Assembly (NCBI GenBank): GCA_013153965.1
Contig: JAADDJ010000010.1
Span: 17,443 to 81,442 of the forward strand
DNA length: 64,000 nt
Direction of reading: 5' to 3'
Source: Thermotogota bacterium
Lineage (GTDB): Bacteria; Hydrothermota; Hydrothermia; LBFQ01
Of this stretch, positions 6,941 to 57,901 are shown piece by piece. Below the pieces are notes generated by a model that saw only the letters and a list, made by a program, of their open reading frames with translations, did no database searches and had not been told where the DNA came from. The stretch's first letter is position 1. Each line of letters starts with the position of its first letter. Made by a program: the position numbers and the translations under genes.

Positions 6941-9900
6941 GTGCTCTGGGTGCTTCTAAACTACGAGGACTACTTTACGAGGCGGTTGATGGAGGAGACC
7001 TTCTCGTACGGCTACACCTACGACTCCAACAACGTCTATGGACTCTACAACTACTACGGGACGGAGGACACCGTCAAGGTCTTCTCAATAGACGAATTCT
7101 TCGGCCTCAACCTCATGTCCTACCTTCGCAAGACGACGGTAAAGGCCTATGACACGTCGGCGACGGAGGCCCTATCCGGACTCGTCCCGGATATAGAGGT
7201 TCCCGTCCAGATACCCAAGAGATGGCGGTTTCTGGGCGAGGGTGTGAGCAAGATAACCCTAAGGGGTGAGCAGACCATATCCATAGGCGGCTCCAAGGAG
7301 GATCTCCTCAGCCCCGAGGGCCAGAACCTCAACAGCCAGTATCAGGTGAGCAACATCCCGAGCATAAACATGAAGCAGACCTTGAACGTGGTCATAACGG
7401 GCCAGATAACGGATCGCCTGAAGGTGGAGGTGCGCCACAACTCCGAAGCCCTGCAGACGGATCAGGACCGGATACTCCTCGCGTACACCGGGACGGATGA
7501 CGATATAGTCCAGAGTCTCCAAGCCGGAGATATAGACGTTTCGGACTTTCCGAGTACCACCTACTCCTCCTTAGGTGCTGGGGCGGGATTGCTCGGATTG
7601 AAGGGCAGGTTCGCTCTCGGCCCCGCCAAGATCGTGGCGGTGGCAACGAAGGAGAGGGGTCAGAGCCAGACCAAGATATTCCGGGCTCAGTCGCAGGTGA
7701 TAACGGATACCCTCTGGGGGAGCGACTACATACGGGAGACCTTCTTCATGCTTCCCATAGCCCCCTTCATACCCCCCGGCGAGGATCCCAACGACTATCG
7801 GATTGAGAATCTGCTCCTCTTCTACAAGCCCCTCGTCCCGACGGGGAACACCTTCGTCTATGGTAAGGCCTATCACCTGATGGACACTTTGGGACTTATA
7901 ACCGACGACACCACCCGCTGCTTCGCGTCGGGCAGATTCGTCCAGATGGACCCCTCATCCTACCGGTTCTACACGGGGAGTGTGGTCCAGATAACGGATC
8001 CCCCGAACGCGTCCCTCTGGTGGCTGGGGGCCGTGTATAGGCTCGTGAAGTCGGATGGGAGCGACACGATAAACGTCGGGTACATCCCCCCCGCTCCGGA
8101 CAGCACGGATCCCATACGGATGCTCCTTATCAAGCTGGACAAGATGCGCTCCTCCGACACATCCCTCACGTGCGCCCTGAACATCAATCTTCTGGAGCTG
8201 AAGAACATATACTCACTTCCCTACCAGTTGGATACGAGCGTCAAGGACCTGACCTTCAACATATACCGCGACAACCCCACGACGAACGATTCACTGGCGC
8301 AGGACGGCATCAAATTCACGACGCTCCTCGGCGTTGACCCCGAGGGCGACGGCAAGATAAACGACATAGTCCCCGTGATCATCAACGGGGATACGGTGAA
8401 TTTCCGAGTTCTTGAGATATTCCCCGAGGGAGGGGGATACCTGATATTCCCGAAGTTCTGGCCCTTCGCCGACACCGTCCTGAGGGATAGGGACAGCATC
8501 ATATATCTGATGGACAGGGAGTACTGGAGGGAGTACCACCGGGAGAAGTACTACATGGTCTTCACATTCCGGAAACCCCAGAAGTTCATAAATCTGGGTG
8601 GGACCTTGATAGACGGCTCGGTTGAGGTCTTCAGGAATGGCCAGAAGCTTCAGGAGGGTAAGGACTATCGGGTGGATTACTCAAACGGCATCGTCCATTT
8701 CCTAATCCCAATAAACGAGACGGACGAGATACGTATAAACTACCGCTCCCTCGGCGCCCCTCTCGCCGAGAGCAGGGCCATTCTGGGTTTGGCCACCACC
8801 ATGGACCTGTCCGAGAACTTCAAGGTCACCCTCAACTACCTGTCAAAGTCCAGAGCATCCGCGTATCCGAGACCTCAATTCGGAAGCGAGCCCAACAGCT
8901 ACTCGGTCTTGGACGCCGGATTGACCTTCAACCACACCTTGGACTATCTCAACCGCTTCCTGAACTCCCGCACCCCCCTCAGCTTGGAGAAGAAGAGCGA
9001 ATTCACCTTGAACGGGGAGGTTGCGAGGTCCTTCCCCAACCCCAGCACGGTGGGCGAGGCTTACATAGACGATTTTGATAGGTTTGACGATAATCTGGAC
9101 AATTTGATCTGGGAGTACAGGAACTGGATACACGGCTCCCTGCCGTACCTTCCCGACTCCGTGAGGGCCGACACCGCCGTCCTCGCCAACCGCCAATCTT
9201 GGTACTCGGACCGTATGGCCGTGAAGGGGGACATACTGGAGATAACGGACGAGCAGGAGCGCACGGACCCCGTGCGGGTCATGAGGCTGATAGCCGAGCC
9301 CCGCATAGAGGGGGTCCCGAACTTCATGACCATAATGATGGGCTACAAGGAGGAGCAGAACTACAAGGAGAAGGAGTACGTGGAGGTATTCGCCCGAGGG
9401 CACGGGATAATCATATTTGACGTGGGAACCAACATACCGGAGGATGCGTACGTGAGGGCCTGCGACGGCAACTTCTACGGCCTCGGCCAGCTCAACACCG
9501 AGGACTTGAATCTGGACAACCAATTCACCGAGACCCGTGAGGACGTCGGTTTGGATGGCGTTCCCGGGGAGGATGGGACCTGCAATCCCGGCTCCGGCGA
9601 CTGGGGGAACGACGACTACACCATATCGGACCCGGCGAACGCGGACCCCTTCCTGATAAACAGGTACGAGGGAAATCACCACGAGGACTCGGAGGACCTG
9701 AACGGCAACTTCCAGCTGGACATGGCGGAGAACTTCTACTCCTACGTGATAGACCTGGACACCATGACACCCATATCCGAGAAGAACGGTTGGAAGCTCT
9801 TCAGGATCCCCCTGCCCAAACCCACCCGGGTCTATGGCAAACCGGCGCTTGACAGGATAGCATACTTCCGCCTGACGTGGTACGGATTTACCCGGACGGA

Positions 9901-12490
9901 CACCCTCTTCATATACCGGCTGGGGATAGGTGGAAGCCCTTGGATAAACGAGGGAGTCAAGGGGGATACCACGGATACGACCCAGTATCTGGCCATAAAC
10001 TTCGTCAGCAAGAAGACCACACCGGGATACGAGTACCCGCCGGGCGTTCAGGATAAACTCACATACGAGGGCATATCCATGGCCCTTCAGGACGAGGGAG
10101 CCATGTCCCTGCTCTACTCCGTCAATCCCGGGGCCTACGCTCTGGCCCGCAAGAACGTCGGTACCAAGTACAACTTCATAAACTACCGGAGCATATCCCT
10201 GTGGGTACAGGACAGGTCCGGCAGCTCTCCCACCATAGTTGTGAGATTCGGGAAGGATTCGCTCAACTTCTACGAGTACAGGCAGAGGATAACGGGCGAA
10301 GGTTGGCAGGCGGTCAAATTCTTCTTGGACAGTTTAGTCCTCTTCAAGGGGGACGAAACGTCGCCGGATTACAGGAGCAACGGGAGGTACGGTGTCAGGG
10401 GGAATCCGAGCATATTTGAGGTTGAATTCTTCTGGGTAGGTGTCGCCAACGACTCCTCCGAGCGGATAAGCGGGGAGCTCTGGGTGAATGAGCTTCGCCT
10501 GACGGACCCCGTTAAGACATCCGCCTACGCCGGGAACGTCTCCATGAGGTTCAACATATCCGACCTGTTTCAGCTTACGGGCAACGGTACGTTTGAGCAG
10601 ATGAACTTCGCCAGGTCGGCCACGAATCTTAGCCAGTACCAGACCCTCCGCTTCAATCTGAACACCACCTTCAACATCCACAGGCTGTTCCCCTCCTCTT
10701 GGGGCCTAAGCATTCCCTTCAACTTTAGCCACAACCTGAGCCAGAGGGTTCCCAAATTCAAGCCCGGTCTGGACGTTCCCATAACCTCGCCGGAGGAGAG
10801 ACGGTCCCTCACGGCCTTCTCCCGCTCAACCGCCTACGGCATATCCTTCTCCAAGAGGGGCTCAACCGGATGGCTGGGTAAGTGGTTCTTGGACCCGTGG
10901 AAACTCTCCCACAGCATGAGATACGACCTATCCAACATACCCGGTCAGAGCTACGACTCCACCGTGTCCCAGAATTACGGCATCCGGTACTCCTACAGGC
11001 CCACGGGCGAGTTCATGTTGGGCAATCGCCGGTACCGCTACCTTCCCACCTCCTACTCAATCTCCTACAACTACAGCCTGACCACCTCCTTCTCCAGAAC
11101 CATGGGTGCCATAACGCGCAGGACGGACAAGTACGGCAACCTCTCCGCCAGCATAAACTACGATCCCATCCCCGGCATATTCGGATTCGGGTACAGCATA
11201 TCCCGAAAGGGGGACTATCGCTACGACGAGCTCTTGAAGAGCTACGCGGACTCCCTTCTCGGGTTTGAGAGCCAATTCAGGGAGAACTTCAACTCCTCCC
11301 TGAACTTGAGGCGCCTGTGGATATTCTCCCCGTCCCTTACGTACCGACACGGGTACGCCGAGGACCGAAAACCCGAGAACGCCCTCACGGGCTTTGACGT
11401 CAGGGATATAAACGAGGACCTCAGTGTGGGCTTCACCCTGAACGTGGAGCAGGGGAGGCTGCTGTCGCAGATAGGGAAATTGAGGGATGAGAGTAAGGAT
11501 ACATCCCTATCCACGGCTGGGGCACTCCACACCTTCCTCTACGGCTTGGACAAGCTGGCCAACATATGGAGGAATACCCGCTTCTCCTACAGCTTCTCCC
11601 GCACATCCAGCTTCTACGCCGCCATGGGAAGGGCCAGTTGGGCCTACCGCTTCGGTTTGGCCCTTGATCCCGGCGTGATAATAACCGACACCCAACGCTC
11701 CAACTGGAGGGAGACCCACTCCTACGACCTATCCACGGACCTGAACATCTCCGCGCGCCTGCGACTCTCTCCGAGATTCAACTACAGCCGGGACCTCACG
11801 GATAACCAGACCCAGCGGATACTTCGGGAGACTTGGAGATTCCCGGACTTCGTCCTGAGCGGACGACCGATACCCATCATCTCCCGCTGGAAGTTCATCT
11901 CATCGTCGGACTTCACCTTCAACTATTCGGACGAGAGGAGCACCACATCCTATCCCCTCTGGGTTCCCACGGGTACGGACACCGTGAGACCGAGGACAAC
12001 GCGCTTCACGAGGACCATAAACCTGTCTCCGAATTTCACCCTCAAGAACGGTACGGGTCTGAACCTCTCCTACACATACACCAACTCCCGAACTCACGAG
12101 ATATACTCCTCCATGAACATAGAGCGAATATCCGTTCAGAACACCTACGAGATAGGTCTGAGCCACACCTTTAGCGGATTCTCCGGCATCCGATTGCCGT
12201 GGAAGAAGGATAGGCTCCTCTCCCTAAAGAACCGTCTGACCCTCTCGGCCAAGTACTCCGCGAGCAGCGGCACGGACATAACCATAAACCACACCCTCGC
12301 GGACTTCGGGAACAGCGTGGATACCCTCTCAAGGCGGAAGAACAACAACCTGACGGTGAGTGCCACCTACCAGTTCAGCAACGCCGTGGATGCGACCTTC
12401 AGCTACATATACAACTTGAGCGGCGACTACGAGGGGGGAATATTCACCCGCAAGAATCAGTTGAGGGCGGACATCCGCATAAGGTTCTGA
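6941..12490 (+). CDS. Giant outer-membrane beta-barrel protein, SprA/Sov (T9SS translocon)-like
   Basis: 1849 aa; S/T/N/Y-rich alternating beta-strand composition throughout; C-terminal aromatic residue (..IRIRF) typical of OM beta-barrels; two T9SS-CTD cargo genes in the same window; GTG start 1 nt after preceding stop; no signal peptide. Confidence 0.55.
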   Translation: MLWVLLNYEDYFTRRLMEETFSYGYTYDSNNVYGLYNYYGTEDTVKVFSIDEFFGLNLMSYLRKTTVKAYDTSATEALSGLVPDIEVPVQIPKRWRFLGEGVSKITLRGEQTISIGGSKEDLLSPEGQNLNSQYQVSNIPSINMKQTLNVVITGQITDRLKVEVRHNSEALQTDQDRILLAYTGTDDDIVQSLQAGDIDVSDFPSTTYSSLGAGAGLLGLKGRFALGPAKIVAVATKERGQSQTKIFRAQSQVITDTLWGSDYIRETFFMLPIAPFIPPGEDPNDYRIENLLLFYKPLVPTGNTFVYGKAYHLMDTLGLITDDTTRCFASGRFVQMDPSSYRFYTGSVVQITDPPNASLWWLGAVYRLVKSDGSDTINVGYIPPAPDSTDPIRMLLIKLDKMRSSDTSLTCALNINLLELKNIYSLPYQLDTSVKDLTFNIYRDNPTTNDSLAQDGIKFTTLLGVDPEGDGKINDIVPVIINGDTVNFRVLEIFPEGGGYLIFPKFWPFADTVLRDRDSIIYLMDREYWREYHREKYYMVFTFRKPQKFINLGGTLIDGSVEVFRNGQKLQEGKDYRVDYSNGIVHFLIPINETDEIRINYRSLGAPLAESRAILGLATTMDLSENFKVTLNYLSKSRASAYPRPQFGSEPNSYSVLDAGLTFNHTLDYLNRFLNSRTPLSLEKKSEFTLNGEVARSFPNPSTVGEAYIDDFDRFDDNLDNLIWEYRNWIHGSLPYLPDSVRADTAVLANRQSWYSDRMAVKGDILEITDEQERTDPVRVMRLIAEPRIEGVPNFMTIMMGYKEEQNYKEKEYVEVFARGHGIIIFDVGTNIPEDAYVRACDGNFYGLGQLNTEDLNLDNQFTETREDVGLDGVPGEDGTCNPGSGDWGNDDYTISDPANADPFLINRYEGNHHEDSEDLNGNFQLDMAENFYSYVIDLDTMTPISEKNGWKLFRIPLPKPTRVYGKPALDRIAYFRLTWYGFTRTDTLFIYRLGIGGSPWINEGVKGDTTDTTQYLAINFVSKKTTPGYEYPPGVQDKLTYEGISMALQDEGAMSLLYSVNPGAYALARKNVGTKYNFINYRSISLWVQDRSGSSPTIVVRFGKDSLNFYEYRQRITGEGWQAVKFFLDSLVLFKGDETSPDYRSNGRYGVRGNPSIFEVEFFWVGVANDSSERISGELWVNELRLTDPVKTSAYAGNVSMRFNISDLFQLTGNGTFEQMNFARSATNLSQYQTLRFNLNTTFNIHRLFPSSWGLSIPFNFSHNLSQRVPKFKPGLDVPITSPEERRSLTAFSRSTAYGISFSKRGSTGWLGKWFLDPWKLSHSMRYDLSNIPGQSYDSTVSQNYGIRYSYRPTGEFMLGNRRYRYLPTSYSISYNYSLTTSFSRTMGAITRRTDKYGNLSASINYDPIPGIFGFGYSISRKGDYRYDELLKSYADSLLGFESQFRENFNSSLNLRRLWIFSPSLTYRHGYAEDRKPENALTGFDVRDINEDLSVGFTLNVEQGRLLSQIGKLRDESKDTSLSTAGALHTFLYGLDKLANIWRNTRFSYSFSRTSSFYAAMGRASWAYRFGLALDPGVIITDTQRSNWRETHSYDLSTDLNISARLRLSPRFNYSRDLTDNQTQRILRETWRFPDFVLSGRPIPIISRWKFISSSDFTFNYSDERSTTSYPLWVPTGTDTVRPRTTRFTRTINLSPNFTLKNGTGLNLSYTYTNSRTHEIYSSMNIERISVQNTYEIGLSHTFSGFSGIRLPWKKDRLLSLKNRLTLSAKYSASSGTDITINHTLADFGNSVDTLSRRKNNNLTVSATYQFSNAVDATFSYIYNLSGDYEGGIFTRKNQLRADIRIRF

Positions 12491-13351
12491 CTATCGCAGG
12501 ATCTCAGGTTTGACCCTATAGACCCTTCCCTGACCCTCCGCATCAACGACGACGAATCGGAAGCCCGCCTCCTCCCAATCCCCATCCATGATCCAGTGGA
12601 AGAGGGGCGTACCCTCGTATATGACGTTCTTCCGTACGTCGTACAGTCTCGGAATCTTATCCTTCCCCCCATAGATGACGAAGCGCCCATCCGGGGAGGC
12701 GGAGACGAATTCAACCCCGTAAGTTCCGTGGGAGATCATCCCCATCTCCCTCCAGCCGTCGGTTGAGTATATGTATATGCCGTCATCCGTGGCCACCAGA
12801 AGCCTCCTGCCATCCTTCGTCCAGTGGATATCCGCCACCGGGGAGTTGAACTTCAGGGTCCTGTAGGCTACCAGAGTGTCCAAGAACCAGACATCAACGA
12901 ATCCGTCGCACGTACCCGTAGCAAACCGCCTTCCGGAAGGGTCCAAGGCCACCGACGTTATGGGACATCCGCGCCGGTTGGGTACCTCCACGACGGTATC
13001 GGAGTGGGGCCTGAGAAGCAGAAGACCCTTATTCTGAACGGCCAAGATCCGTCCGTCGTTTAGCCACACCAGGTCGTTGGTCATGGACGTGTTGCGATAC
13101 ACGTAGAGCCTCCCGCCGGCTATGGAGTATATGCCCAGAGCGCTCCCACCGACGGCCAGACGGCTCCCCGATGGGGAGACCCTGACCACGTTCGGATGGA
13201 CCATCCCCAAGGGGAACTCCGCCTTCTTCTGCGCCCCCGTATCCGACCAGACGTATCCTCTCCCGCGCATATCCACCGTGGCTATGGCCCTAACGCCCCA
13301 ATCCACCGCCGAGAGAGGCGCCCCGTGGGAGAATACCCAGAGAAGCTCCAT
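12491..13351 (-). CDS. WD40/beta-propeller repeat protein
   Basis: Repeated ~40-aa units with GxxDGxxxxW/ D-x-W patterns (e.g. DGFVDVW, DGIYIYSTDGW); start overlaps upstream stop as TGATG. Confidence 0.55.
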   Translation of the reverse strand: MELLWVFSHGAPLSAVDWGVRAIATVDMRGRGYVWSDTGAQKKAEFPLGMVHPNVVRVSPSGSRLAVGGSALGIYSIAGGRLYVYRNTSMTNDLVWLNDGRILAVQNKGLLLLRPHSDTVVEVPNRRGCPITSVALDPSGRRFATGTCDGFVDVWFLDTLVAYRTLKFNSPVADIHWTKDGRRLLVATDDGIYIYSTDGWREMGMISHGTYGVEFVSASPDGRFVIYGGKDKIPRLYDVRKNVIYEGTPLFHWIMDGDWEEAGFRFVVVDAEGQGRVYRVKPEILR

Positions 13352-20025: not shown

Positions 20026-21345
20026 ATGCCCCTTCGCCGATACTCCCGTCCCGAGATGTGGAAACTGTGGTCGGAGGAGGAGAAATTCCGGACTTGGGCC
20101 AAGGTTGAGTGGGCCGTCGCCAAGGCACAGGAGGAGATGGGGATAATACCGAAGGTGGGACTATCGGACTCCCTGGCCGCCCTGCTGGAGGATGAGGATT
20201 TCTGGAGGGATGTACCCGAGAGGGTGGCGGAGAGGGAGCGTATATACGACCACGACGTGCTGGCCTTCCTGTCCGTCCTTGAGGAGAGCCTTGGGAGGGG
20301 AGGCAACTACCTGCACTTCGGCATGACGTCTTCGGATGTGGTTGATACGGCCAACGCTCTACGGATGCGCAAAGCTTTGCTCCTCGTGAGGGAAGAGTTG
20401 CTGCGTCTCGCGAAGGCCCTGTACGATAAGGCCCAAAGGTATAAGTACTCGCCCGTGATGGGTAGGACCCACGGGGTGTTCGCCCAACCCACCACATTCG
20501 GCCTCAAATTCCTCGGTTTCTACTCGGAGGCTCTGCGGGACCTGCGCCGTCTTGACGATGCGATTGAGAGCATCTCCTACGGGAAGATCTCCGGGGCCGT
20601 GGGAAACTACGCCCTGAACCCTCCGGAGGTTGAGGAGAGGGCGCTCGCCCTCCTCGGTCTGAAGGTTGAGCCTGTATCCACCCAGGTCGTACCCCGCGAC
20701 CGCTTCGCCCACGCCCTCAACGTCCTCATGCTCGTTGGAGAGCTCTTGGAGAGGTTGGCTTTGGAAATTAGACTGTCGGCCCGGACCGAGACGGGGGAGA
20801 TGGCCGAGCCGTTCCGCAGGGGACAGAGGGGCTCTTCGGCCATGCCCCACAAACGAAACCCCATAAGGAGCGAGAGGCTCACCGGGATAGCCCGACTGCT
20901 AAGGGGATGGGCCCTGGCGGAGAATGAGAGCGTGGCCCTGTGGCACGAGAGGGATATAAGCCACTCGTCGGTTGAGCGATTCACCCTTGCCGACGCCACC
21001 ACCACCCTCCACTATGCTTTGGGTCTGGCCACGTCCATCGTGGAAGGCCTGGTCGTAAATGAGGATAGGGCCCGGGAGAATATGGAGAGATTCGGGGACT
21101 TCTATCTGTCGTCGGTCCTACTCCTCCTTCTGGTGAGGAAGGGGGTCTCAAGGGATGTGGCATACGAGTGGGTGAAGGAGGTCTCCCAGAGGGCCCACGA
21201 CCGTGGAACGTCCATATACGAGGAGGCGATGAGGCACTCCGAGATCCGCAACTTCCTGACGGAGGAGGAGCTTCGCCGGGGACTGTCGGTGGATTTCAAC
21301 CGCTACGTGGATGTGATCTTCTCCCGATTCGGACCGCCATCCTAA
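20026..21345 (+). CDS. purB: Adenylosuccinate lyase
   Basis: Fumarate-lyase signature GSSAMPHKRNP, YLHFGMTSSDV; 439 aa. Confidence 0.95.
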   Translation: MPLRRYSRPEMWKLWSEEEKFRTWAKVEWAVAKAQEEMGIIPKVGLSDSLAALLEDEDFWRDVPERVAERERIYDHDVLAFLSVLEESLGRGGNYLHFGMTSSDVVDTANALRMRKALLLVREELLRLAKALYDKAQRYKYSPVMGRTHGVFAQPTTFGLKFLGFYSEALRDLRRLDDAIESISYGKISGAVGNYALNPPEVEERALALLGLKVEPVSTQVVPRDRFAHALNVLMLVGELLERLALEIRLSARTETGEMAEPFRRGQRGSSAMPHKRNPIRSERLTGIARLLRGWALAENESVALWHERDISHSSVERFTLADATTTLHYALGLATSIVEGLVVNEDRARENMERFGDFYLSSVLLLLLVRKGVSRDVAYEWVKEVSQRAHDRGTSIYEEAMRHSEIRNFLTEEELRRGLSVDFNRYVDVIFSRFGPPS

Positions 21346-24300
21346 GAGTCGCCGTACCTGTCGGGCGACAGTATGGCGTAGGCGACGGGAACCACCAGAA
21401 GGGTGGTGACCAGCGAGAAGAGCAAACCTCCGGATAGGGAAACTCCCAACCCCTCCCAGAATTCCGAGCCCTCAAGTCTCAAGATGGCCAAGGGCAGCAC
21501 GCCCAAGGCTGTGGTCAGGGCCGACATGAGGACGGGGCGCAACCTTCTCCTTGAGGCTTCAACTATGGCCCCGTACTTGTCCATTCCCCTACGCCGAAGC
21601 AGGTTCGCGTAATCCACGAGAACTATGGCGTTATTCACGACCAATCCCACCAGCGCCACCAGACCGACGAATGCCGTCATCGTGAAGGGTCTTCCCAGAA
21701 GGAGGAATCCCAAGGATGCCCCGGCGAGGCCGAAGGGAACGCTCGTTAAGAAGATTATGAGCGACTGCCGGAAGCTCTCAAACTGGGCGGCCACCGTCAG
21801 GAATATTATGAGAATGGCCAGAACGAGCAGAACGCCCATCTGCCTGAAGCTCTGGGCCATGCGCCTGAATGTGCCGCCGAATTCGTAATGGTACCCGGTC
21901 GGGAACTCCACTTCCTCCAACTTGCGGGATAACTCCTTACGAATCTCTCCCAAGGGTCTTCCAGATGGCTCGGCCGACACCTCAACGTATCTGATCCTGT
22001 TCCGCCTGTCTATCCTGACGGAGGCCAAACGCTCCTCAAGGGAGAGGACGTTTCCAAGGGGTACCCTGCCGAGGCTCAACGCTAGCACGTCCTCCGCCCC
22101 ATCAACGTACTTGGGGTCCATGCGGGCTACCACGTCTAGATTCTTCCCCCCGGTCTTTAGGGTGAATACGGTCCTTCCATGCACGGCGTAGCGAAGGAAG
22201 TTGGCCACCTGAAATGGCGTTATCCCGTACATGTACATCACCTCACGGTCCAACCTCGCCACCATCTCCGGGGCCGGCTTTCCCCTTGATATGCTCACGC
22301 TCCTGACACCTTCAACCGTGCGCATCACGTGCGCCACGACTTGGGCCAAACTGTCCAAGACTTTGAAGTCGTCGCCGTATATCTCAACGGATACCCCCTT
22401 TCCGCCCCCGAAGAGGAGCTGGGAACCGTGCCCCGTCGTGGAGACGCTGTACTCCTCCACTCCGGGGACCTCCGCCGCGAGACGCTCTATATCGCCGGCT
22501 ACACTTTCTATGCTTCTCCTCTGGCCTCGGGGCTTGAGTCTGACGGTTATCTCCCCCGTGTATGGGGCCTCGGTCGTCCCGAATAGGGCGGAGAAACCGG
22601 TCTCCGATTGACCGACACGGAGGACGGCCATCTCAACGTCCGGCAACTCGCGGATCCTATCGTAAAGCTCCTTGAGGACGGCGTAGGTCTTCTCCAGGGA
22701 GGTTCCCCGCTCAAGCTGGATGTTTAGGACTATCCTACCCTCGTCCAATTTGGGGAAGAAGTCGGTCTTCACGAAACGCCACGCCGAGCCGACGATGACG
22801 AGGAGTAGGGCGAAGACCGCGGCCCACTTCCACCTGTGCCTCACCAGTATCCCCACCAGTCTGTGGTAAGCCCTCTCCAGAGGGATGAACCACCTCGGCT
22901 CTCCCTTGGGACGCAGGCGGAGATGGTTCGCGGCGAGGGAGGGTACCACGGTCAGGGCCAAGAAGAGGCTGGTGGCATACACGATTATCGTGATTATGGC
23001 CAGCTCCTTGAACATCACGCCGACGAATCCGGGGACGAAGAGAAGCGGGAAGAGGACGACGAAGTTCGTTATCGTGGCGGCGGTTATGGCACCGGCAACC
23101 TCCTTGGTGGCGAATATAGCCCCCTCGCGCGGTGGCTCCCCCTTGAGCCTGTGGAAGAAGATGTTCTCAACCACAACTATGGCCGCATCCACCACGCTTC
23201 CGACGGCTATGGCCATGGCGGACAGGGATATCATGTTTATGGAGCTTCCCGTCAGGTAGAGGTAGAGGAACGAGAGGGTGAGAGAGGTGGGAATGGTCAG
23301 GGCTATGATGAGAGCCGAGCGTATGTCTATGAGGAAGAGGAAGGCCACGATTATCACGATGAAGGAGGCCAAGAGGAGGGTGCGGGTCAGGTTGGCCACG
23401 GAGTTCCTTATGAAGGTTGAGCCGTCGGAATATATGGTAAATTGCACCGGATAGTACCTCTCCAACTCCTTAAACTTCCTCTTGACGGCGTCGGCCACCT
23501 TGACGGCGTTGGCGTCCGCCTGCTTCTGGACGGAGAAGAAGACCGCCTCCCTGTTGCCACTCAGAACGTAGGTCCTCCTCTCGGCGTAGCCGTCCTCAAC
23601 CTCGGCCACCTCCTCAAGTCTCACGGGCCTTCCACCCACGTATCCGACCACCGCCCTCTTCAGGTCCTCAACGCTCCTTATGGTGCTGGGCACCCGGAGG
23701 ACCATCTGCCTGTCGCCCAGCTTGAGGTCCCCGACGGGTACATCCATACTCTGGGCCTCCAGAAGACGCACCATATCCTCAAAGGTCAGACCGTATCCCT
23801 CCAGACGCTTCCTATCAACGAGGACGTTTATCTGCCGCTTTCTCCCGCCCCCGAAGAGGAGAACCGATCCCACGCCATCCACCCTCTGAAGCTCATCCTC
23901 CATCACCTCCTCCGCCCAGTAGCGGGTGTCAAAACCCTCGTCGGTTGAGACTACCCCCGCGACTATTATGGGGAACTGGCCCACGTCAAACTTGAAGACC
24001 AGAGGCTCCAGTATGTCCTTCGGCAGGCGTGGCCGGGCGAAGTTTATCCTATCCCTAACCTCAACGGCCGCCTGGTCCATGTCGGTGCCGTACTTGAAGG
24101 TTATGGTTATGGCCCCCACGCCCTGCTGGCTGGTGCTCTTTATCTCATCAACGTTCTCAAGGACGGAGAACTCCTTCTCTAAAACCTCCACCACGTTCCT
24201 CTCCACGTCCTCGGGTGAGGCGCCCGGATACTGAACTATGACAGAGACGGAGGGGAGGGAGAAGTTGGGGAAGAGGTCTATTCCCAGATTGGAGAGCCCG

Positions 24301-24374
24301 AAGGCGCCGCCTATAAGCATCAGGAGGAGTACGACCAGCGAGAAGACGGGCCGCCTCACGAAGAAGGAGGTCAT
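21342..24374 (-). CDS. RND-family efflux transporter permease (AcrB/CzcA-like)
   Basis: 12-TM, two large periplasmic loops, N-terminus MTSFFVRRPVFSLVVLLLML matching the AcrB start; start set at the internal ATG (M14). Confidence 0.9.
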   Translation of the reverse strand: MTSFFVRRPVFSLVVLLLMLIGGAFGLSNLGIDLFPNFSLPSVSVIVQYPGASPEDVERNVVEVLEKEFSVLENVDEIKSTSQQGVGAITITFKYGTDMDQAAVEVRDRINFARPRLPKDILEPLVFKFDVGQFPIIVAGVVSTDEGFDTRYWAEEVMEDELQRVDGVGSVLLFGGGRKRQINVLVDRKRLEGYGLTFEDMVRLLEAQSMDVPVGDLKLGDRQMVLRVPSTIRSVEDLKRAVVGYVGGRPVRLEEVAEVEDGYAERRTYVLSGNREAVFFSVQKQADANAVKVADAVKRKFKELERYYPVQFTIYSDGSTFIRNSVANLTRTLLLASFIVIIVAFLFLIDIRSALIIALTIPTSLTLSFLYLYLTGSSINMISLSAMAIAVGSVVDAAIVVVENIFFHRLKGEPPREGAIFATKEVAGAITAATITNFVVLFPLLFVPGFVGVMFKELAIITIIVYATSLFLALTVVPSLAANHLRLRPKGEPRWFIPLERAYHRLVGILVRHRWKWAAVFALLLVIVGSAWRFVKTDFFPKLDEGRIVLNIQLERGTSLEKTYAVLKELYDRIRELPDVEMAVLRVGQSETGFSALFGTTEAPYTGEITVRLKPRGQRRSIESVAGDIERLAAEVPGVEEYSVSTTGHGSQLLFGGGKGVSVEIYGDDFKVLDSLAQVVAHVMRTVEGVRSVSISRGKPAPEMVARLDREVMYMYGITPFQVANFLRYAVHGRTVFTLKTGGKNLDVVARMDPKYVDGAEDVLALSLGRVPLGNVLSLEERLASVRIDRRNRIRYVEVSAEPSGRPLGEIRKELSRKLEEVEFPTGYHYEFGGTFRRMAQSFRQMGVLLVLAILIIFLTVAAQFESFRQSLIIFLTSVPFGLAGASLGFLLLGRPFTMTAFVGLVALVGLVVNNAIVLVDYANLLRRRGMDKYGAIVEASRRRLRPVLMSALTTALGVLPLAILRLEGSEFWEGLGVSLSGGLLFSLVTTLLVVPVAYAILSPDRYGDS

Positions 24375-24431
24375 CGGCCGGATATTATACGGGCGATTTG
24401 AACGATCGTTCAAAAGAGATGATTCCCTCGG

Positions 24432-25916
24432 CTACAGGGAGCCTTTGAATTTTAGTATCCTGAATCCCTCGTCGTCAAAATATTCGCCGTGGGAGATAAC
24501 GATGAGCGTCTTACCCTGAGTCTTGGATAAAATTTTATTTTTAAAGAACTCTCGTTCATCGGACGAGATGTTGGCGAGAGGCTCGTCAAATATATAGACG
24601 TCCGCATCCTTTGAAAGGGCGAGCGCTATCGCTAACTTTTGCTTCTGCCCCGCAGATAAGGTACCCGCCGCATTACTTTTGAGCTCTTCAATGTTGAACT
24701 CCCTTAGCGTTCCTTCATCTACGATCTCCCCAACCTTAACATTTGGGAACTCAAAAGGTTGAGTGATTGAAGAGATGGTTTTAGGCAGAATTACCTTCCC
24801 ACTCTCAGGACTCAAAATTCCCGATATTACGTTGGCAAAGGTCGTCTTGCCCGTCCCATTCCTCCCTTTTATGAGTACCCTTTCCCCTTTATTTATCAGC
24901 ACCGTGATGTCCGTCAGTATGGTTTTATCGCCGTACGATACCTTTAAATTCTCAACGTATATGTTGGGGCCAAGCGTGTAATAATCGGTCTCTCTAAGCC
25001 CGACAAATTCATAGAACCTTTCTATATACCTCCAAGAGCTCACCATCTCGGGGAGTAAGGATAAACTGGTCCCTATGTACCTTGATACTAAACCTATAGC
25101 ACCTATAAAGGTTATAAATTCCCCAAGGGTTATTTTATTGCTTAAAACCTCAAAACTTACCAAACATATAAATACAAACATAATGGCGTAATTTAACGTA
25201 TTGCCTATATGGGAAATGGCGAAGCTCCTTGATTTGAGCGTGAGGATCCCACTGAAGGTCTCGTTTATATAATCAGTCAAATAGTCCCTCACGATACCGG
25301 GAAAACCGAGCAAATTTCTAATTATTTGGTAAGATTTTATAAAATCCAGTATCACCCCCTTGATGAAGGCTTCCGACTCGCCCACGTTCTCCGCCAACTT
25401 TCGGAGAGATCCGTGCATCCTCACCATAAGAATATTTATCATGGCGGCACTTATGATGAATGCAATTGCCAGCGAAAGATGTATTTTTAATGCGGTGATC
25501 ATTCCATTAACGATGACCCCGATTATATAAAACAACCCCATCGTGGAGACGATGAGACCCTCCAAGCCCGTATCTATATCGTCATATATTCTTGATGCGA
25601 CGTACCCCGCATTCTCTAAGGTTCTAATGTCCTTGTGGTATATGAAGTTTAAATTATCGTATATCTCGTCTCTCACAATCCACATCTTGATGAAATAACC
25701 CAAGAAATCGGCAAATATGTAAATTAGAGGGTAAGCTACGAGCAATATCAGGAAAATGGCCGAGTATTTCAAGAAACCCGCCTCATCATGTTTGTATAAA
25801 GTATCCGTGATATGGCCCTCAAGAATTGGGAAATAAACTTCCAGTACTCCCATCGCGAGGTTTATCAGCAGCAGAGGAAGTATCGTTATCAAGGATTTTC
25901 TCAATACTCTAAGCAA
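24432..25916 (-). CDS. ABC exporter half-transporter (6-TM permease fused to NBD)
   Basis: Walker A GRNGTGKTT, signature LSAGQKQKLAIALAL, Walker B VYIFDEPLAN; markedly lower GC than the surroundings. Confidence 0.85.
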   Translation of the reverse strand: MLRVLRKSLITILPLLLINLAMGVLEVYFPILEGHITDTLYKHDEAGFLKYSAIFLILLVAYPLIYIFADFLGYFIKMWIVRDEIYDNLNFIYHKDIRTLENAGYVASRIYDDIDTGLEGLIVSTMGLFYIIGVIVNGMITALKIHLSLAIAFIISAAMINILMVRMHGSLRKLAENVGESEAFIKGVILDFIKSYQIIRNLLGFPGIVRDYLTDYINETFSGILTLKSRSFAISHIGNTLNYAIMFVFICLVSFEVLSNKITLGEFITFIGAIGLVSRYIGTSLSLLPEMVSSWRYIERFYEFVGLRETDYYTLGPNIYVENLKVSYGDKTILTDITVLINKGERVLIKGRNGTGKTTFANVISGILSPESGKVILPKTISSITQPFEFPNVKVGEIVDEGTLREFNIEELKSNAAGTLSAGQKQKLAIALALSKDADVYIFDEPLANISSDEREFFKNKILSKTQGKTLIVISHGEYFDDEGFRILKFKGSL

Positions 25917-27399
25917 TTCTTACCTCCCTGAAGTTCCCGAAATTTCCACGCTTCATGTGCTGAATAATTATCAGTATCCCGTTGGATGTTCTTGATAGTA
26001 TAAGCGCCGATATTTCTCTGCTCATAATTTCATCCAAACTCTCCAAAGGTTCATCAAAAATGTATGCATCGGCCTTCTTAGAAAGTGCCAGTAAAATTCC
26101 AACAACCCGCTTTTGCCCTATAGAAAGCTCCGTACAGAGATTTTCCTTTACGCTGTCCAGTCCGTACCGTTTCAAAGTTTCCGGATCAACCATATCCTTA
26201 ACCCTCGCAGGGGGAAGATGTACAGGTAAAATAAGGGAAGACAAGTTGCGCGGCGTAATAACCTTCCCCTTCAAAGGTTCCAAGTTTCCGGATATTATGT
26301 GGGCCAATGTGGTTTTCCCCGAACCGTTGGGGCCAGTTATGAGTACTCTATCCGAATTTTTGGCCACGAAGTGCAAATTTTTTAATACTTCTTTTTCTCC
26401 ATAGGAGGCGTATATACCCTCGCATTCTATGTAATCCTTAAATATGCGGTATTCCCGCAGAGGCGATAGGCCTTCTCGCAATTTATTCCTATATACTTGG
26501 ATCTCCCTATATACAGGTATGAGCGAAGTTATATCCGAGAAAATATCACCGTACTTCCTTACAAGATAAACCATCGCTAAAAGGGAGCTTATAGATAGGC
26601 CACCTCTTAGAACCATATATCCACCGATAAGAATGATGACCACATACACACCCTGATACAGGAACCACGAAATGTTGGAAATTATTGAGAGTGCCGCTTC
26701 AAATTTCAAATATTTTGTTTTAAATTTTTCAAACGGCTTAATGATATAGGACCTTTGCAGCCCTATGATTCTCCACAATTTGAAGGATTTCAATACATCA
26801 ATCAGACGATTTTTAAATCTTAGCCTCTCATCCATCTCCCTCTTTTTCGTCTCACCTATATACCTTGACAGGTAATTGACGACCGAAAATGCCGATAGAA
26901 AGATTATTATGCTTAAGATAAACATCCTGTGAGATAGATACATTCCTACCGCTACCATGAATATTCCACCGAATAGAGCGTTCAACAGTTTGTGGAAGAA
27001 CTCCACCTCCTTGGAGGCCATATTCATTGAGGTGTTGAAGATGAGATTTAAATATCTGCCTTCCTCTCTCGCTCTCTTAACATCTAAGCGATAAAATTCC
27101 TCCATACTTCGGATTATATTTTTCTCTGCCATCTCAAGGTGTAATTTTGCCCTAAGGTAATTGCCAAGATGCTCAAAGGTGGATGAGCCTACAGCGGCGA
27201 GCATGATACCACCCGCGAACAAGAGCGCTTTTATGAAAATTTTGTCATATATGATGATATCTATCAATCTTTTATAAAATATCGGTATCACTAACAGCGA
27301 AAGTAAATGCAACAATATCGCCGTCGCGAACATGAGCCTCCATTTCATCACGCTCCGCAAAATACTGGGACATTTTCTGAATTTGTCAAGTATCCCCAT
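25909..27399 (-). CDS. ABC exporter half-transporter (6-TM permease fused to NBD), partner of 24432..25916
   Basis: Walker A GPNGSGKTT, signature LSIGQKRVVGILLAL, Walker B AYIFDEPLESLD; 8-nt overlap with the downstream ABC gene; low GC. Confidence 0.85.
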   Translation of the reverse strand: MGILDKFRKCPSILRSVMKWRLMFATAILLHLLSLLVIPIFYKRLIDIIIYDKIFIKALLFAGGIMLAAVGSSTFEHLGNYLRAKLHLEMAEKNIIRSMEEFYRLDVKRAREEGRYLNLIFNTSMNMASKEVEFFHKLLNALFGGIFMVAVGMYLSHRMFILSIIIFLSAFSVVNYLSRYIGETKKREMDERLRFKNRLIDVLKSFKLWRIIGLQRSYIIKPFEKFKTKYLKFEAALSIISNISWFLYQGVYVVIILIGGYMVLRGGLSISSLLAMVYLVRKYGDIFSDITSLIPVYREIQVYRNKLREGLSPLREYRIFKDYIECEGIYASYGEKEVLKNLHFVAKNSDRVLITGPNGSGKTTLAHIISGNLEPLKGKVITPRNLSSLILPVHLPPARVKDMVDPETLKRYGLDSVKENLCTELSIGQKRVVGILLALSKKADAYIFDEPLESLDEIMSREISALILSRTSNGILIIIQHMKRGNFGNFREVRIA

Positions 27400-27585
27400 T
27401 TTGCACGTTAGTTTTTCACGTTTTCAAGCGTGAATTTTCAACGGAAGACAGAACGAAGGACCTTTGTAATATACACCTCCGAGTATGATGCGTCCCCTCA
27501 CAATGAGAGCATGTTTCCGCGGTTCAACGAATTACTAACACCTACCACCACAGATCCGCCGGTGCAGGGGTAGAATACCGACCCC

Positions 27586-28980
27586 ATGAGCAAGATAAAG
27601 GAAGTTATAGCGAAAGTTAGGGAAACCTACGGGAACACCGAGAAGGAGTTTGTGCAGGCGGTGGAGGAGGTTTTGACGAGCCTGGAGCCCGTAGAGAAGA
27701 AGCATGAGGAGTTCACCCGCTGGAACATCTACGAGCGCATCGTAGAGCCCGACCGCGTCATAACCTTCAAGGTCACGTGGCAGGACGACCGGGGCCAGAT
27801 CCACGTCAATCGTGGATACAGGGTGGAGTTCAACGGGGCCATAGGTCCCTATAAAGGGGGACTGCGCTTCCGCAAGAGCGTGAATCTCGGCATCATCAAG
27901 TTCCTCGGCTTTGAGCAGATCTTCAAGAACGCTCTAACGGGCCTTCCCATGGGAGGCGGAAAGGGCGGCTCCGACTTTGATCCCCACGGAAAGAGCGACG
28001 AGGAGGTCATGAGGTTCTGCTACGCCTTCATGTCCGAGCTCTTCCGCCACATAGGCCCCTACACGGACGTCCCCGCCGGAGATATAGGTGTGGGCTCCCG
28101 CGAGGTGGGATACCTCTACGGCGCCTACAAGAAGCTCAAGAACGAGCACACCGGCGCTATAACCGGTAAGGACTACGAGTACGGTGGAAGCCTCATGAGG
28201 CCCGAGGCAACCGGGTACGGACTCCTGTACTTCACCGCCCATATGCTCAACGACCTCGGTCCGAAGGTGGGCATAAACGTTGAGGATCCCGACAGGCCCC
28301 TCAAGGGGCTCATCGTCGCCGTCAGCGGCGCCGGGAACGTGGCCCTGCACGCCATAGAGAAGGCGAACGAGATGGGCGGCAAGGTGGTCTTCGCCTCCGA
28401 CGCCTCCGGTGCCATATACGACGAGGCCGGAATCTCCGGCGAAAAGTTCCGCTTCCTCAAGGAGCTCAAGGAGATAAGGAGGGGTCGGATAAAAGAGTAC
28501 GCCGAGAAGTTCAACGTACCCTACTTTGAGGGTAAGTCCGTGTGGGACGTCATAGCCGAGAAGGGTATAAAGGTGCAGGTGGCTCTCCCCTCGGCGACCC
28601 AGAACGAGATAACCGGCAGGCACGCCGAGGCTCTGGTGAAGGTGGGGGTCAAGGTGGTGGCGGAGGGGGCCAACATGCCCTCAACTCCCGAGGCCATAAA
28701 GATATACAAGGATGCCGGTATCCTCTACGGCCCCGCCAAGGCCGCCAACGCCGGTGGCGTCGCCGTCTCCGGTCTGGAGATGTCGCAGAACGCCCAGCTT
28801 CTCCAATGGACGCGCGAGGAGGTGGATAACCGTCTGCGGGCCATAATGAGGCACATATACGAGGAGTCCAAGAACGCGGCCGAGGCCTACGGCCATCCCG
28901 GCGACCTCATGATGGGGGCCAACATAGCCGGATTCCTGAAGGTGGCCAAGGCCATGGTCGCCCTCGGCCTCTTCTACTGA
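27586..28980 (+). CDS. gdhA: NADP-specific glutamate dehydrogenase
   Basis: GDH active-site region GGGKGGSDFDP with catalytic Lys; Rossmann GAGNVA; 464 aa. Confidence 0.95.
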   Translation: MSKIKEVIAKVRETYGNTEKEFVQAVEEVLTSLEPVEKKHEEFTRWNIYERIVEPDRVITFKVTWQDDRGQIHVNRGYRVEFNGAIGPYKGGLRFRKSVNLGIIKFLGFEQIFKNALTGLPMGGGKGGSDFDPHGKSDEEVMRFCYAFMSELFRHIGPYTDVPAGDIGVGSREVGYLYGAYKKLKNEHTGAITGKDYEYGGSLMRPEATGYGLLYFTAHMLNDLGPKVGINVEDPDRPLKGLIVAVSGAGNVALHAIEKANEMGGKVVFASDASGAIYDEAGISGEKFRFLKELKEIRRGRIKEYAEKFNVPYFEGKSVWDVIAEKGIKVQVALPSATQNEITGRHAEALVKVGVKVVAEGANMPSTPEAIKIYKDAGILYGPAKAANAGGVAVSGLEMSQNAQLLQWTREEVDNRLRAIMRHIYEESKNAAEAYGHPGDLMMGANIAGFLKVAKAMVALGLFY

Positions 28981-56819: not shown

Positions 56820-57149
56820 CTACTCGGGTATCTCGTCCCTCACGTCCTCGTGGTCCTTGTACTCCTCACTCTGGAGTACGGAGGTTATGAAGTCGTCAAT
56901 CTCCCTCTTGGTCAGGAAGACGCCGGCGAGGAGTTTGCCCGTGTAGTGATTGTTCTTGATCTCCCAGAACATGTAGAACTGGGGGAAACGCTCCTTCAGC
57001 TGCTTGTAGGCTATACCGTACTTGCTCGGCTTCTTGTAATTCTGCTCTATGAAGAAGTGCTTCTCATCCACCTCTATCAGGTGGAGGATGGCTCCCGTCT
57101 TCGTCTCTACCAGCTTCCACTTTAAGGGACGCTCTTCCAGTACTTTCAT
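56820..57149 (-). CDS. Hypothetical protein
   Basis: 109-aa ORF 3 nt upstream of tsaC; no recognised motif. Confidence 0.4.
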   Translation of the reverse strand: MKVLEERPLKWKLVETKTGAILHLIEVDEKHFFIEQNYKKPSKYGIAYKQLKERFPQFYMFWEIKNNHYTGKLLAGVFLTKREIDDFITSVLQSEEYKDHEDVRDEIPE

Positions 57150-57188
57150 GGTGAGACTATTATAGACCCGAAAGGGAGGGGGGAAGGT

Positions 57189-57881
57189 CTATCCGAAAAG
57201 TCTAAAGAGAGCCACCATCAAGCCGGCCAGGGCGACCATCTGACCCACCCAGAAGACGAACATCCATCTGATTATGTCGGCCCTCAACCTTCCCATCTCC
57301 CCGTACAGATTTGAGCGTAGGCTCTCAACATCGCCCTTGAACTCCGTACGTAGGCCTTCAATCCTCTCCGCCATCTCCGTCCGCAGACTCTCAATATCAC
57401 CCTTCAACTCCGCACGTAGGCCTTCAATCCTCTCCGCCATCTCCGTTCGCAGGCTCTCAACATCGCCCTTCAACTCCACACGTAGGCCCTCAATCCTTTC
57501 CGCCATCTCCGTCCGCAGACTCTCAACATCACCCTTCAACTCCGCACGCAAACTCTCAATATCACCCTTCAACTCCGTACGTAGGCCTTCAATCCTCTCC
57601 GCCATCTCCGTTCGCAGACTCTCAACATCGCCCTTCAACTCCGCACGTAAACTCTCAATATCACCTTTTAACTCCGCACGTAAGCCTTCAATCCTCTCCG
57701 CCATCTCCACCCTCAGTTTCCCCATCTCCTCCGCCAGGCGTCGTGCGAACCTCTCCTCCAATATCTCAAGCAACTGTGCCTTCGTATCCTCCTGAATCTG
57801 CCGCAGCACATCAACGAGAGCCTCACTACCGTCATCCCCCAGTTTCTCCCTCAGAACCTTTGGGACGGTTATCAGAGGCAT
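57189..57881 (-). CDS. Tail-anchored coiled-coil protein with 12 hendecad repeats (DUF1640-like)
   Basis: Repeats xEMAERIEGLR / xELKGD(I/V)ESLR x12; C-terminal TM RWMFVFWVGQMVALAGLMVALFRLFG. Confidence 0.55.
   Translation of the reverse strand: MPLITVPKVLREKLGDDGSEALVDVLRQIQEDTKAQLLEILEERFARRLAEEMGKLRVEMAERIEGLRAELKGDIESLRAELKGDVESLRTEMAERIEGLRTELKGDIESLRAELKGDVESLRTEMAERIEGLRVELKGDVESLRTEMAERIEGLRAELKGDIESLRTEMAERIEGLRTEFKGDVESLRSNLYGEMGRLRADIIRWMFVFWVGQMVALAGLMVALFRLFG
57312..57710. repeat. Tandem array of ~12 near-identical 33-bp repeats (coding; hendecad protein repeats)
   Basis: Read directly: units such as ctcaacatcgcccttcaactccgcacgtaggcc / ttcaatcctctccgccatctccgtccgcagact recur with few substitutions. 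Confidence 0.8.
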
Positions 57882-57901
57882 CGTCTTATTTTAAGGGGGA
57901 A

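Follow-up and report, generated by a model that had tools for sequence, protein, structure and literature searches.

What is a pair of ABC transporter genes, far richer in AT than the genes on either side, doing between an RND efflux gene and the glutamate dehydrogenase gene gdhA, and how did it come to lie there? The question is raised by a 64-kb stretch of contig JAADDJ010000010.1 (assembly GCA_013153965.1, labelled as a Thermotogota bacterium), which was analysed over its whole length and is referred to here as the window. A sequence-only reading had proposed that approximately 3 kb of it form a low-GC island with two tandem half-transporters, recently acquired from a low-GC donor and placed upstream of an RND pump. 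Comparison with a related genome demonstrates an AT-rich insert at this position. We regard it as highly probable that the insert is a horizontally acquired cassette carrying cargo alone, namely the genes of a functional heterodimeric type IV ABC exporter. With somewhat less assurance, we consider it likely that horizontal transfer delivered an orphan heterodimeric exporter that handles a substrate, probably a lanthipeptide-like peptide, in immunity or export.

The empty site was reached through the relatives of gdhA (77-82% identity). The route through the RND relatives failed, and the loci that hold these (L006-L009) have no neighbours in common with the window. In locus L024 (GCA_027003075.1), orthologous RND and gdhA genes are divergent, lie 100 bp apart and have no ABC genes between them. 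The RND proteins of L024 and the window share 77% amino acid identity and the gdhA products share 82.5%, with the same gdhA start codon. Comparison by blastn yielded two homology blocks, the one aligning 5860-8941 of L024 with 21349-24415 of the window and the other aligning 8972-10358 with 27557-28976. The gap between the blocks measures 30 nt in L024 and 3,141 nt in the window. Therefore, the insert spans 24416-27556 (3,141 bp, GC 0.41 against 0.58) and stands in place of approximately 30 nt of the L024 RND-gdhA spacer. Its left junction falls directly after the RND operator (…TTGAACGATCGTTCAAAA) and its right junction falls 14 nt upstream of the TAGAAT box of gdhA. RND genes without the ABC pair thus occur in related genomes (L024 and L006-L009), and the pair is likewise absent beside the gdhA relatives L022, L023 and L025. 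At the ends of the insert we found no convincing flanking direct or inverted repeats, terminal repeats or target-site duplication. An Rfam search returned no match at E <= 1.

Sliding-window GC revealed a single AT-rich patch in the 64 kb, extending from approximately 24.4 to 27.45 kb. When 24432-27399 was set against the rest of the window, GC was 0.414 in the patch and 0.580 elsewhere; windows of 250 nt gave 0.35-0.46 in the patch and 0.56-0.64 in the flanks. GC at third codon positions (GC3) is 0.476 and 0.523 in the two ABC genes as compared with 0.74-0.82 in the RND, gdhA, purB, amidase and esterase genes. The shift lies mostly at synonymous sites, that is at the codon level, and the RND gene used in the comparison also encodes a membrane protein. 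The codon adaptation index (CAI), calculated with 31 long host open reading frames (ORFs) as the reference set, is 0.42 and 0.47 for the ABC genes against 0.678 +/- 0.058 for the host (z = -4.4 and -3.6), and both values fall under the host minimum of 0.495. The low-GC island of the sequence-only reading is therefore real, with sliding-window GC, GC3 and CAI all strongly deviant, and these statistics together with the empty site in L024 support its horizontal acquisition. A composition-corrected tetranucleotide comparison was less extreme. The cassette correlates with its own host at r = 0.67, while native 3-kb segments reach 0.88 +/- 0.04 and unrelated DNA reaches at most 0.33. This intermediate signature would be compatible with a segment that has partly ameliorated, or with one whose source belonged to the same broad lineage or had adapted to it; the WOR-3-like lineage does have members of lower GC, among them L008 (GC 0.50) and L025 (GC 0.47). 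Acquisition by transfer consequently stands, whereas a recent date and an unrelated low-GC donor are not established, given the intermediate signature and the lack of any donor match. In the 1-kb profile of the window, a local dip to GC 0.531 with a GC skew of -0.352 was observed at 57001-58000.

The insert encodes two overlapping minus-strand half-transporters, as had been proposed, each with an ABC_membrane and an ABC_tran domain. Subunit A (25909-27351, 480 aa) comprises six transmembrane (TM) helices and a compact nucleotide-binding domain (NBD), according to Pfam, AlphaFold2 (AF2), Foldseek and its homologs. Subunit B (24432-25916, 494 aa), which begins with a TTG codon, was assigned by Pfam and as a paralog of A, with which it shares 31% identity. 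The ABC_membrane profile (PF00664) scores 37 bits in A and 24 bits in B, the latter below the cut-off of 28, and the ABC_tran profile (PF00005) scores 59 bits in A. Translation of A starts at the ATG at 27351 (MKWRLMF), which has GGAG 4 nt upstream and is used in the NCBI model and in both 70%-identical relatives. The ATG at 27399 was rejected as the start of A; it is not conserved, DNA homology begins only at 27289, and it is probably an artefact. At the junction of the two genes (25909-25929, minus strand), a Shine-Dalgarno (SD) sequence AGGGAGGT at 25929-25922 precedes the TTG of B at 25916-25914, and an 8-nt overlap extends to the TAG stop of A at 25911-25909. The junctions in the related loci L001 and L003 are alike (AGGAGGT, 5 nt, TTGCTTA[AG]) and keep the TTG start. 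The conserved SD, TTG and overlap indicate translational coupling. The cassette of the more distant locus L004 holds both paralog types (35% and 40% identity), so the duplication is older than that split. Paralogy, an overlap junction kept in three loci and a type IV fold all agree with the earlier suggestion of an exporter pair, which would probably function as a heterodimer.

Since A starts at 27351, the non-coding leader comprises 234 nt (27352-27585) and not the 185 bp (27400-27585) first assigned to it, and the empty-site comparison places 27352-27556 within the insert. This non-coding 5' part (minus strand) is a candidate promoter/operator region by consensus match and short repeats. A promoter-like site, recognised by consensus only, has its -35 element TTGAAA at 27427-27422 and its -10 element CAAAAT at 27403-27398 on the minus strand. 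An inverted repeat, TTCACG-N8-CGTGAA (27415-27434), occurs once in the window, and in a post hoc test the short repeats at 27404-27441 stood above mononucleotide shuffles (k = 5, P ~0.001; k = 6, P ~0.008). Site and repeats together (27398-27441), located 50-90 nt upstream of the corrected start, make a plausible promoter/operator. The leader repeats pointed out from the sequence alone are thus above chance but without comparative support, as the regions upstream of the other cassettes have no homology to the 5' part of the insert. A 29-aa ORF noted in the same place (27498-27587) is attributable to chance, with 51% of leader shuffles holding an ATG-initiated ORF of at least 29 aa. The ORF lacks an SD sequence and has no homolog at any locus, straddles the junction between insert and host, and was rejected as a precursor peptide.

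Structural modelling and Foldseek comparison covered subunit A. The AF2 model (pLDDT 87.6) displays six long TM helices and the NBD, and its top Foldseek matches are PCAT1, IrtAB, TAP, TmrAB, TM287/288, CydDC and McjD with TM-scores of 0.6-0.7; the probability is 1.0 for PCAT1, TmrAB, TAP and CydDC. In the model, A is an ABCB-like half-transporter with the type IV exporter fold. Across four cassettes, both subunits keep Walker A, LSxGQ, the D-E of Walker B and the His of the H-loop without variation. The Q-loop Gln is missing from A in three of the four members and the D-loop Asp is missing from B in three of four, the subunits of the window being among those that lack them. Judged by these motifs, neither subunit has a classical degenerate ATP site of the TM287/288 type. 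A Peptidase_C39 domain was not found in either protein, both of which begin at TM helix 1, and the pair accordingly falls outside the PCAT/AMS class. The NBDs are unusually short. The Walker A Lys is separated from the signature Ser by 63 aa as compared with 83 in a standard exporter of the L003 host, and the tail after the H-loop measures 15-18 aa as compared with 45. This compactness is common to the wider family. The best sequence matches of the NBDs (coded by 24432-25000 and 25909-26420) are soluble ABC proteins of the translation-factor type, ABC-F proteins (e.g. ExpZ) and ABCE1/RLI, ahead of the NBDs of other exporters. Compact size may be the reason, though ancestry or a shared composition could also contribute. 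A defence system was considered and rejected; PADLOC gave only generic ABC/AAA ATPase matches.

The distribution of the pair is narrow and scattered. Among 5.8 billion protein clusters, each subunit retrieved itself and two relatives at approximately 70% identity, and A retrieved one more at 35%. Subunit A is 100% identical to P0001, 70% identical to P0002 and 68% identical to P0003. HMMER, run exhaustively on 1.84 billion representatives, added one fragment. The label 'Crenarchaeota' that one cluster member carries, on a contig of 3.5 kb, is probably a binning error. The two-gene cassette was found in four other assemblies at three distinct loci (L001/L002, L003 and L004/L005), always as the same overlapping pair and in neighbourhoods wholly different from one another and from that of the window. 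The cassette therefore occupies a different locus in each host, and syntenic copies across the clade, as expected of ancient lineage-typical genes, were not seen. The related cassettes are also AT-rich, with GC of 0.388, 0.343 and 0.482 against 0.540, 0.580 and 0.549 in their respective flanks, and GC3 of 0.33-0.58 against 0.70-0.79. DNA similarity among cassettes (approximately 72%) is restricted to the two coding regions. Because the loci compared had no orthologs in common, host relatedness was assessed by tetranucleotide signatures, and the flanks of all four cassette hosts group with WOR-3-like contigs (r = 0.82-0.95; unrelated 0-0.3).

Surroundings of the related cassettes supplied little mobile-element context. 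An IS1-type InsA zinc-ribbon remnant (PF03811, 27.1 bits, cut-off 26.1) directly upstream of the L003 cassette, at L003 9401-9997, is the only such trace adjoining any copy. The 145-aa ORF next to this remnant has no Pfam match, and the body of the IS1 transposase was not recovered. Eight unknown ORFs upstream of the L001 cassette gave no meaningful PHROG match when a prophage or mobile context was sought. A further AT-rich gene is located 2.7 kb from the L001 cassette (L001 11840-13300, 486 aa, FG-GAP repeats, GC 0.446, GC3 0.39), and more than a single acquired segment may be present there. In L004, the paralogous subunits have an identical C-terminal stretch of approximately 45 residues (EPLANLDAGAKEYFLNKILERTEGKSLILISHEKVEGLKEVGMD; 11470-11620 and 12930-13076), which implies recent gene conversion between the paralogs.

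Substitution rates suggest how the cassettes have been maintained. The ratio of nonsynonymous to synonymous divergence (dN/dS) is 0.10-0.13 among three close cassette copies and 0.12-0.14 for the host RND and gdhA genes when the window is compared with L024. The low ratio in the cassettes indicates that the genes are functional and under purifying selection. Synonymous divergence among the copies is saturated (dS 1.5-1.9), yet all of them remain far under host GC3, which argues that most of the divergence accrued outside the present hosts, in an AT-rich background. This would suggest that the copies were acquired separately from an AT-rich pool that had diversified, and the GC3 differences between copies (0.33, 0.42 and 0.50) may reflect residence times.

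The genes on either side of the insert belong to the host. The orphan AcrB-type RND permease gene (21342-24374, minus strand; ACR_tran 800 bits) lies outside the insert and has the ABC pair upstream of it and co-oriented with it, as previously described. Its own promoter is host DNA at the left junction (24375-24415, minus strand) and is kept in L006-L009 and L024, with the -35 element TTGAAC at 24413-24408 and the -10 element TATAAT at 24389-24384, 9 nt before the ATG. The -35 element is contained in a palindrome of 16 bp without mismatches, TTGAACGATCGTTCAA (24398-24413). Approximately 45 nt upstream of each RND ortholog, TTTGAACGATCGTTCAAATCGCCCGTATAATATCCGGCC-ATG, are nearly unchanged (L006 9962, L007 3541, L008 228, L009 9963 and L024 about 8925), and homology ends directly beyond. 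This element is nearly invariant although the RND coding regions share only 68-80% identity. A TATAAT ending 9 nt before the RND ATG suggests a leaderless or near-leaderless mRNA and a putative repressor. RND orthologs (68-80% identity) were found in four WOR-3 or 'Thermotogota' metagenome-assembled genomes (L006-L009) among unrelated neighbours, which include an SDH-type protease, a BNR-repeat protein, OsmC and a GNAT acetyltransferase. No membrane-fusion, outer-membrane or ABC gene is located beside the orthologs in L006-L009 and L024. The permease does lack partner genes nearby, as the sequence-only reading had stated; this adaptor-less state is nevertheless typical of the lineage and seen in all relatives.

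On the other side, the NADP-glutamate dehydrogenase gene gdhA (27586-28980, plus strand) was identified by profile matches and its L024 ortholog. Its proximal promoter (27557-27585, plus strand) is host DNA at the right junction and aligns with L024 8972-9000. The TAGAAT box at 27571-27576 ends 9 nt before the ATG, a geometry shared with the RND promoter and kept in L024. Upstream of about -25 the host sequence has given way entirely to the insert, so that any -35 element or upstream regulation of gdhA now comes from foreign DNA. The gdhA product of the window has an 11-residue internal insertion after residue 228 (at approximately 28270-28302, plus strand) relative to that of L024 (464 as compared with 452 aa), and the N-termini are the same.

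What the pair might transport is suggested by its wider relatives. Approximately 600 representatives at E <= 1e-30 make up a family of compact half-transporters of 500-550 aa. Six of the seven wider relatives examined have LanKC, a class III lanthipeptide synthetase, or a remnant of it encoded directly upstream of the ABC gene, which adds support to the early guess of a peptide exporter serving peptides that are made on ribosomes and modified after translation (RiPPs). A full class III/IV lanthipeptide synthetase (RamC_N, Pkinase and LANC_like) precedes the gene of P0008 (L013/L014), and synthetases with the same three domains stand directly upstream for P0152 (L015/L016) and P0016 (L019). The best plasmid match, from Streptomyces sp. 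N50 (L026), has a full-length LanKC upstream (E = 1e-156), and P0263 (L027) has a LanKC 3' end at the contig edge (E = 4e-36). The nearest outgroup, P0262 (L020/L021), belongs to a WOR-3-like genome and has a decayed C-terminal LanKC remnant upstream (E = 1e-13 to 1e-16; L020 321-737, L021 42-221). GC3 of its ABC gene is depressed (0.54 as compared with 0.69-0.73), and a TonB-dependent-receptor-like gene comes after it. The seventh relative, P0150 (L017/L018), is without LanKC. At L015 2820-3287, four tandem genes for precursors of 35-36 aa (MN[TS]IL[ED]LQKVET…DWSTVSNxCNN…) lie upstream of the LanKC-ABC pair, with an LxLQ leader (I-L-[ED]-L-Q) and an SxxSxxC core (STVSNxC). The class III lanthipeptide cluster on this metagenome contig is apparently undescribed. 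LxLQ and SxxSxxxC motifs have been described (PMC7268733), and 'MdlB-like' ABC transporters are present at approximately 70% of Firmicutes lanKC loci, with roles in export or immunity that are untested (PMC8169954). The sole LxLQ-type motif of the window sits inside a long ORF at 60933.

The explanation we favour would run as follows. A GC-rich WOR-3 bacterium, labelled 'Thermotogae bacterium' in NCBI, received a 3,141-bp segment by horizontal transfer in the divergent promoter spacer of approximately 100 bp between its stand-alone RND gene and gdhA. The segment would have brought its own promoter region and a translationally coupled two-gene operon. The paralogous halves, each with six TM helices and a minimal NBD, are predicted to form a heterodimer with two catalytically competent ATP sites. 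They may be an offshoot of the compact half-transporters encoded downstream of LanKC, moving without synthetase or precursor genes. ATP-driven expulsion of a small lanthipeptide-like peptide could then provide acquired immunity or resistance, or could export a product encoded elsewhere. The specific proposal that the substrate is lanthipeptide-like and that the orphan pair is acquired immunity or resistance is tentative, and we would give it somewhat less than an even chance. Bolder, and on balance doubtful, is the suggestion that such cassettes are cargo-only mobile modules without a recognisable recombinase, drawn from an AT-rich reservoir among thermophilic WOR-3 bacteria and conferring resistance to the lanthipeptides of neighbours, and that the minimal-NBD family (approximately 600 clusters) is a distinct, unstudied subfamily of ABC exporters.

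Several observations weigh against this explanation. No tRNA, tmRNA or integrase was found in the window that would account for the insertion. Viral contigs and two metagenome-contig scans with alignments of the transmembrane domain (TMD) of each subunit alone yielded neither a further copy nor a donor, and tblastn against PLSDB plasmids and INPHARED phages yielded only distant matches of 31% identity or less. The tetranucleotide signature of the cassette is partly host-like, so that the source may be a relative rather than a distant low-GC organism. The promoter of the insert was assigned by consensus only. Importers (IrtAB) and non-peptide exporters (CydDC, MsbA) match the fold equally well, and the context of P0150 is defence/toxin-antitoxin-like rather than LanKC-linked. 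When three LanKC proteins, one LanC and four precursors were used as tblastn queries against the window, L001, L003 and L004, nothing significant was found. The sequence-only reading had likewise seen no biosynthetic genes alongside the pair, and the substrate assignment consequently draws on relatives that are approximately 25-35% identical.

If the pair were instead ancestral at this site, its AT-richness would be intrinsic and selected, and L024 would have lost the genes by a precise deletion. Cassette dN between hosts (0.18-0.21) is indeed near the dN of the host RND gene between the window and L024 (0.18), all cassette hosts appear WOR-3-like, the cassette signature is partly host-like, and GC3 is likewise low in the nearest outgroup, which belongs to a WOR-3-like genome. 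Against this, the cassette occupies a different locus in each of four distinct hosts, is absent beside RND in L006-L009 and beside gdhA in L022, L023 and L025, and is extremely rare among the 5.8 billion protein clusters. Genes resident for as long as the saturated dS implies would be expected to have reached host GC3, and the deletion would need to spare both promoters. We consider ancestry at this site improbable. An exporter dedicated to a RiPP or other product made by the host, with its cluster elsewhere in the genome, has somewhat more in its favour but is still unlikely. The relatives are cluster exporters and the inspected part of the genome amounts to 64 kb; however, the ABC gene of those relatives comes directly after LanKC in six of seven cases, often overlapping it, while the pair here stands alone in four contexts, and for a cassette that moves without the biosynthetic genes, repeated encounters with its cluster would be improbable.

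Function might also be sought in the neighbouring pump, or in a substrate other than a peptide. The two ABC genes and the downstream RND gene are co-oriented, only 57 nt separate the ABC stop from the RND ATG, and this gap showed no intrinsic terminator in that direction, so read-through into RND is possible. Five relatives without the pair (L006-L009 and L024) nevertheless preserve the RND promoter/operator with hardly a base changed, RND orthologs are solitary everywhere, and no RND gene lies near the other cassettes, which places the pair outside the tripartite RND efflux operons. The functional ABC-RND link implied by the sequence-only reading is hence hard to credit, and a single efflux operon or unit is by far the least probable of the alternatives. 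The adjacency appears to be an accident of the insertion point, with the RND gene an autonomous unit. A non-peptide transporter of the same fold could be a CydDC-like thiol or heme exporter, an IrtAB-like siderophore importer or a multidrug exporter. CydDC, IrtAB, MsbA and BmrCD are equally good fold matches, and CydC is a top NCBIfam match by E-value. The CydC and CydD scores (86.5 and 72 bits) are, however, far under their cut-offs (329 and 435), neither cydAB (cytochrome bd) nor siderophore genes adjoin the pair, LanKC linkage is seen in its nearest full-length sequence relatives, and of the PDB sequence matches that contain a TMD, PCAT1 is the best. The CydDC-like identity once suggested is thus not upheld, and a non-peptide transporter in general seems a poor candidate, about as improbable as an ancestral pair.

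Horizontal insertion of an orphan peptide exporter, the explanation retained, makes this a well-documented and fairly ordinary case of horizontal gene acquisition that leaves current understanding unchanged. The gain is resolved to the base, with an exact empty site, in the barely cultured phylum WOR-3, and what was gained is a rare form, with two subunits, of the compact ABC exporters usually found beside class III lanthipeptide synthetases. The main value lies in correcting the tempting inference of an ABC-RND partnership and in the link to lanthipeptide exporters. If the pair is an orphan immunity pump, lanthipeptide-mediated antagonism would be suspected in hydrothermal and hot-spring communities, and resistance cargo could spread without its biosynthetic cluster. 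The minimal NBD may also be of interest to the structural biology of ABC transporters.

Comparison with known systems places the pair closest to the LanKC-linked ABC exporters. Two-subunit ABC exporters of LanKC clusters are known in actinomycetes; LanKC-cluster exporters include RamAB of the SapB ramCSAB cluster and LabT1/LabT2 of the labyrinthopeptin cluster. The pair resembles the LanKC-linked exporters in full-length homology (23-35% identity, profile scores of 150-300 bits) and in its compact half-transporter architecture with a short NBD. It differs in lacking a synthetase, a precursor or a LanKC remnant in four contexts, in being a probable heterodimer from an old duplication where the examined relatives are single genes, and in forming an isolated clade at most 35% identical to all else.

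PCAT1/AMS-type transporters (PDB 4ry2, 6v9z) provide the best TMD-containing PDB sequence match (E = 1e-14), and PCAT1 is a top structural match to A (TMq 0.63-0.70, 21% identity). Unlike PCAT1, which is a homodimer, the pair has no N-terminal C39 peptidase, is approximately 90 residues shorter than the PCAT1 core and would assemble as a heterodimer. TM287/288, TmrAB and BmrCD share with it two adjacent or overlapping genes, paralogous halves of six TM helices and an NBD, and the same fold. These systems have one degenerate ATP site in which the catalytic Glu or His is lost, whereas the pair keeps both residues; its asymmetry is confined to the Q-loop (A) and the D-loop (B), and its NBDs are approximately 50 residues shorter. 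As an insertion, finally, the segment resembles classical genomic islands in its atypical GC, GC3 and codon usage, its empty site in a relative and its patchy distribution. It differs from them in being 3.1 kb of cargo alone, without integrase, tRNA, direct repeats or target duplication, and in lying within a promoter spacer where the core elements of both host promoters are intact.

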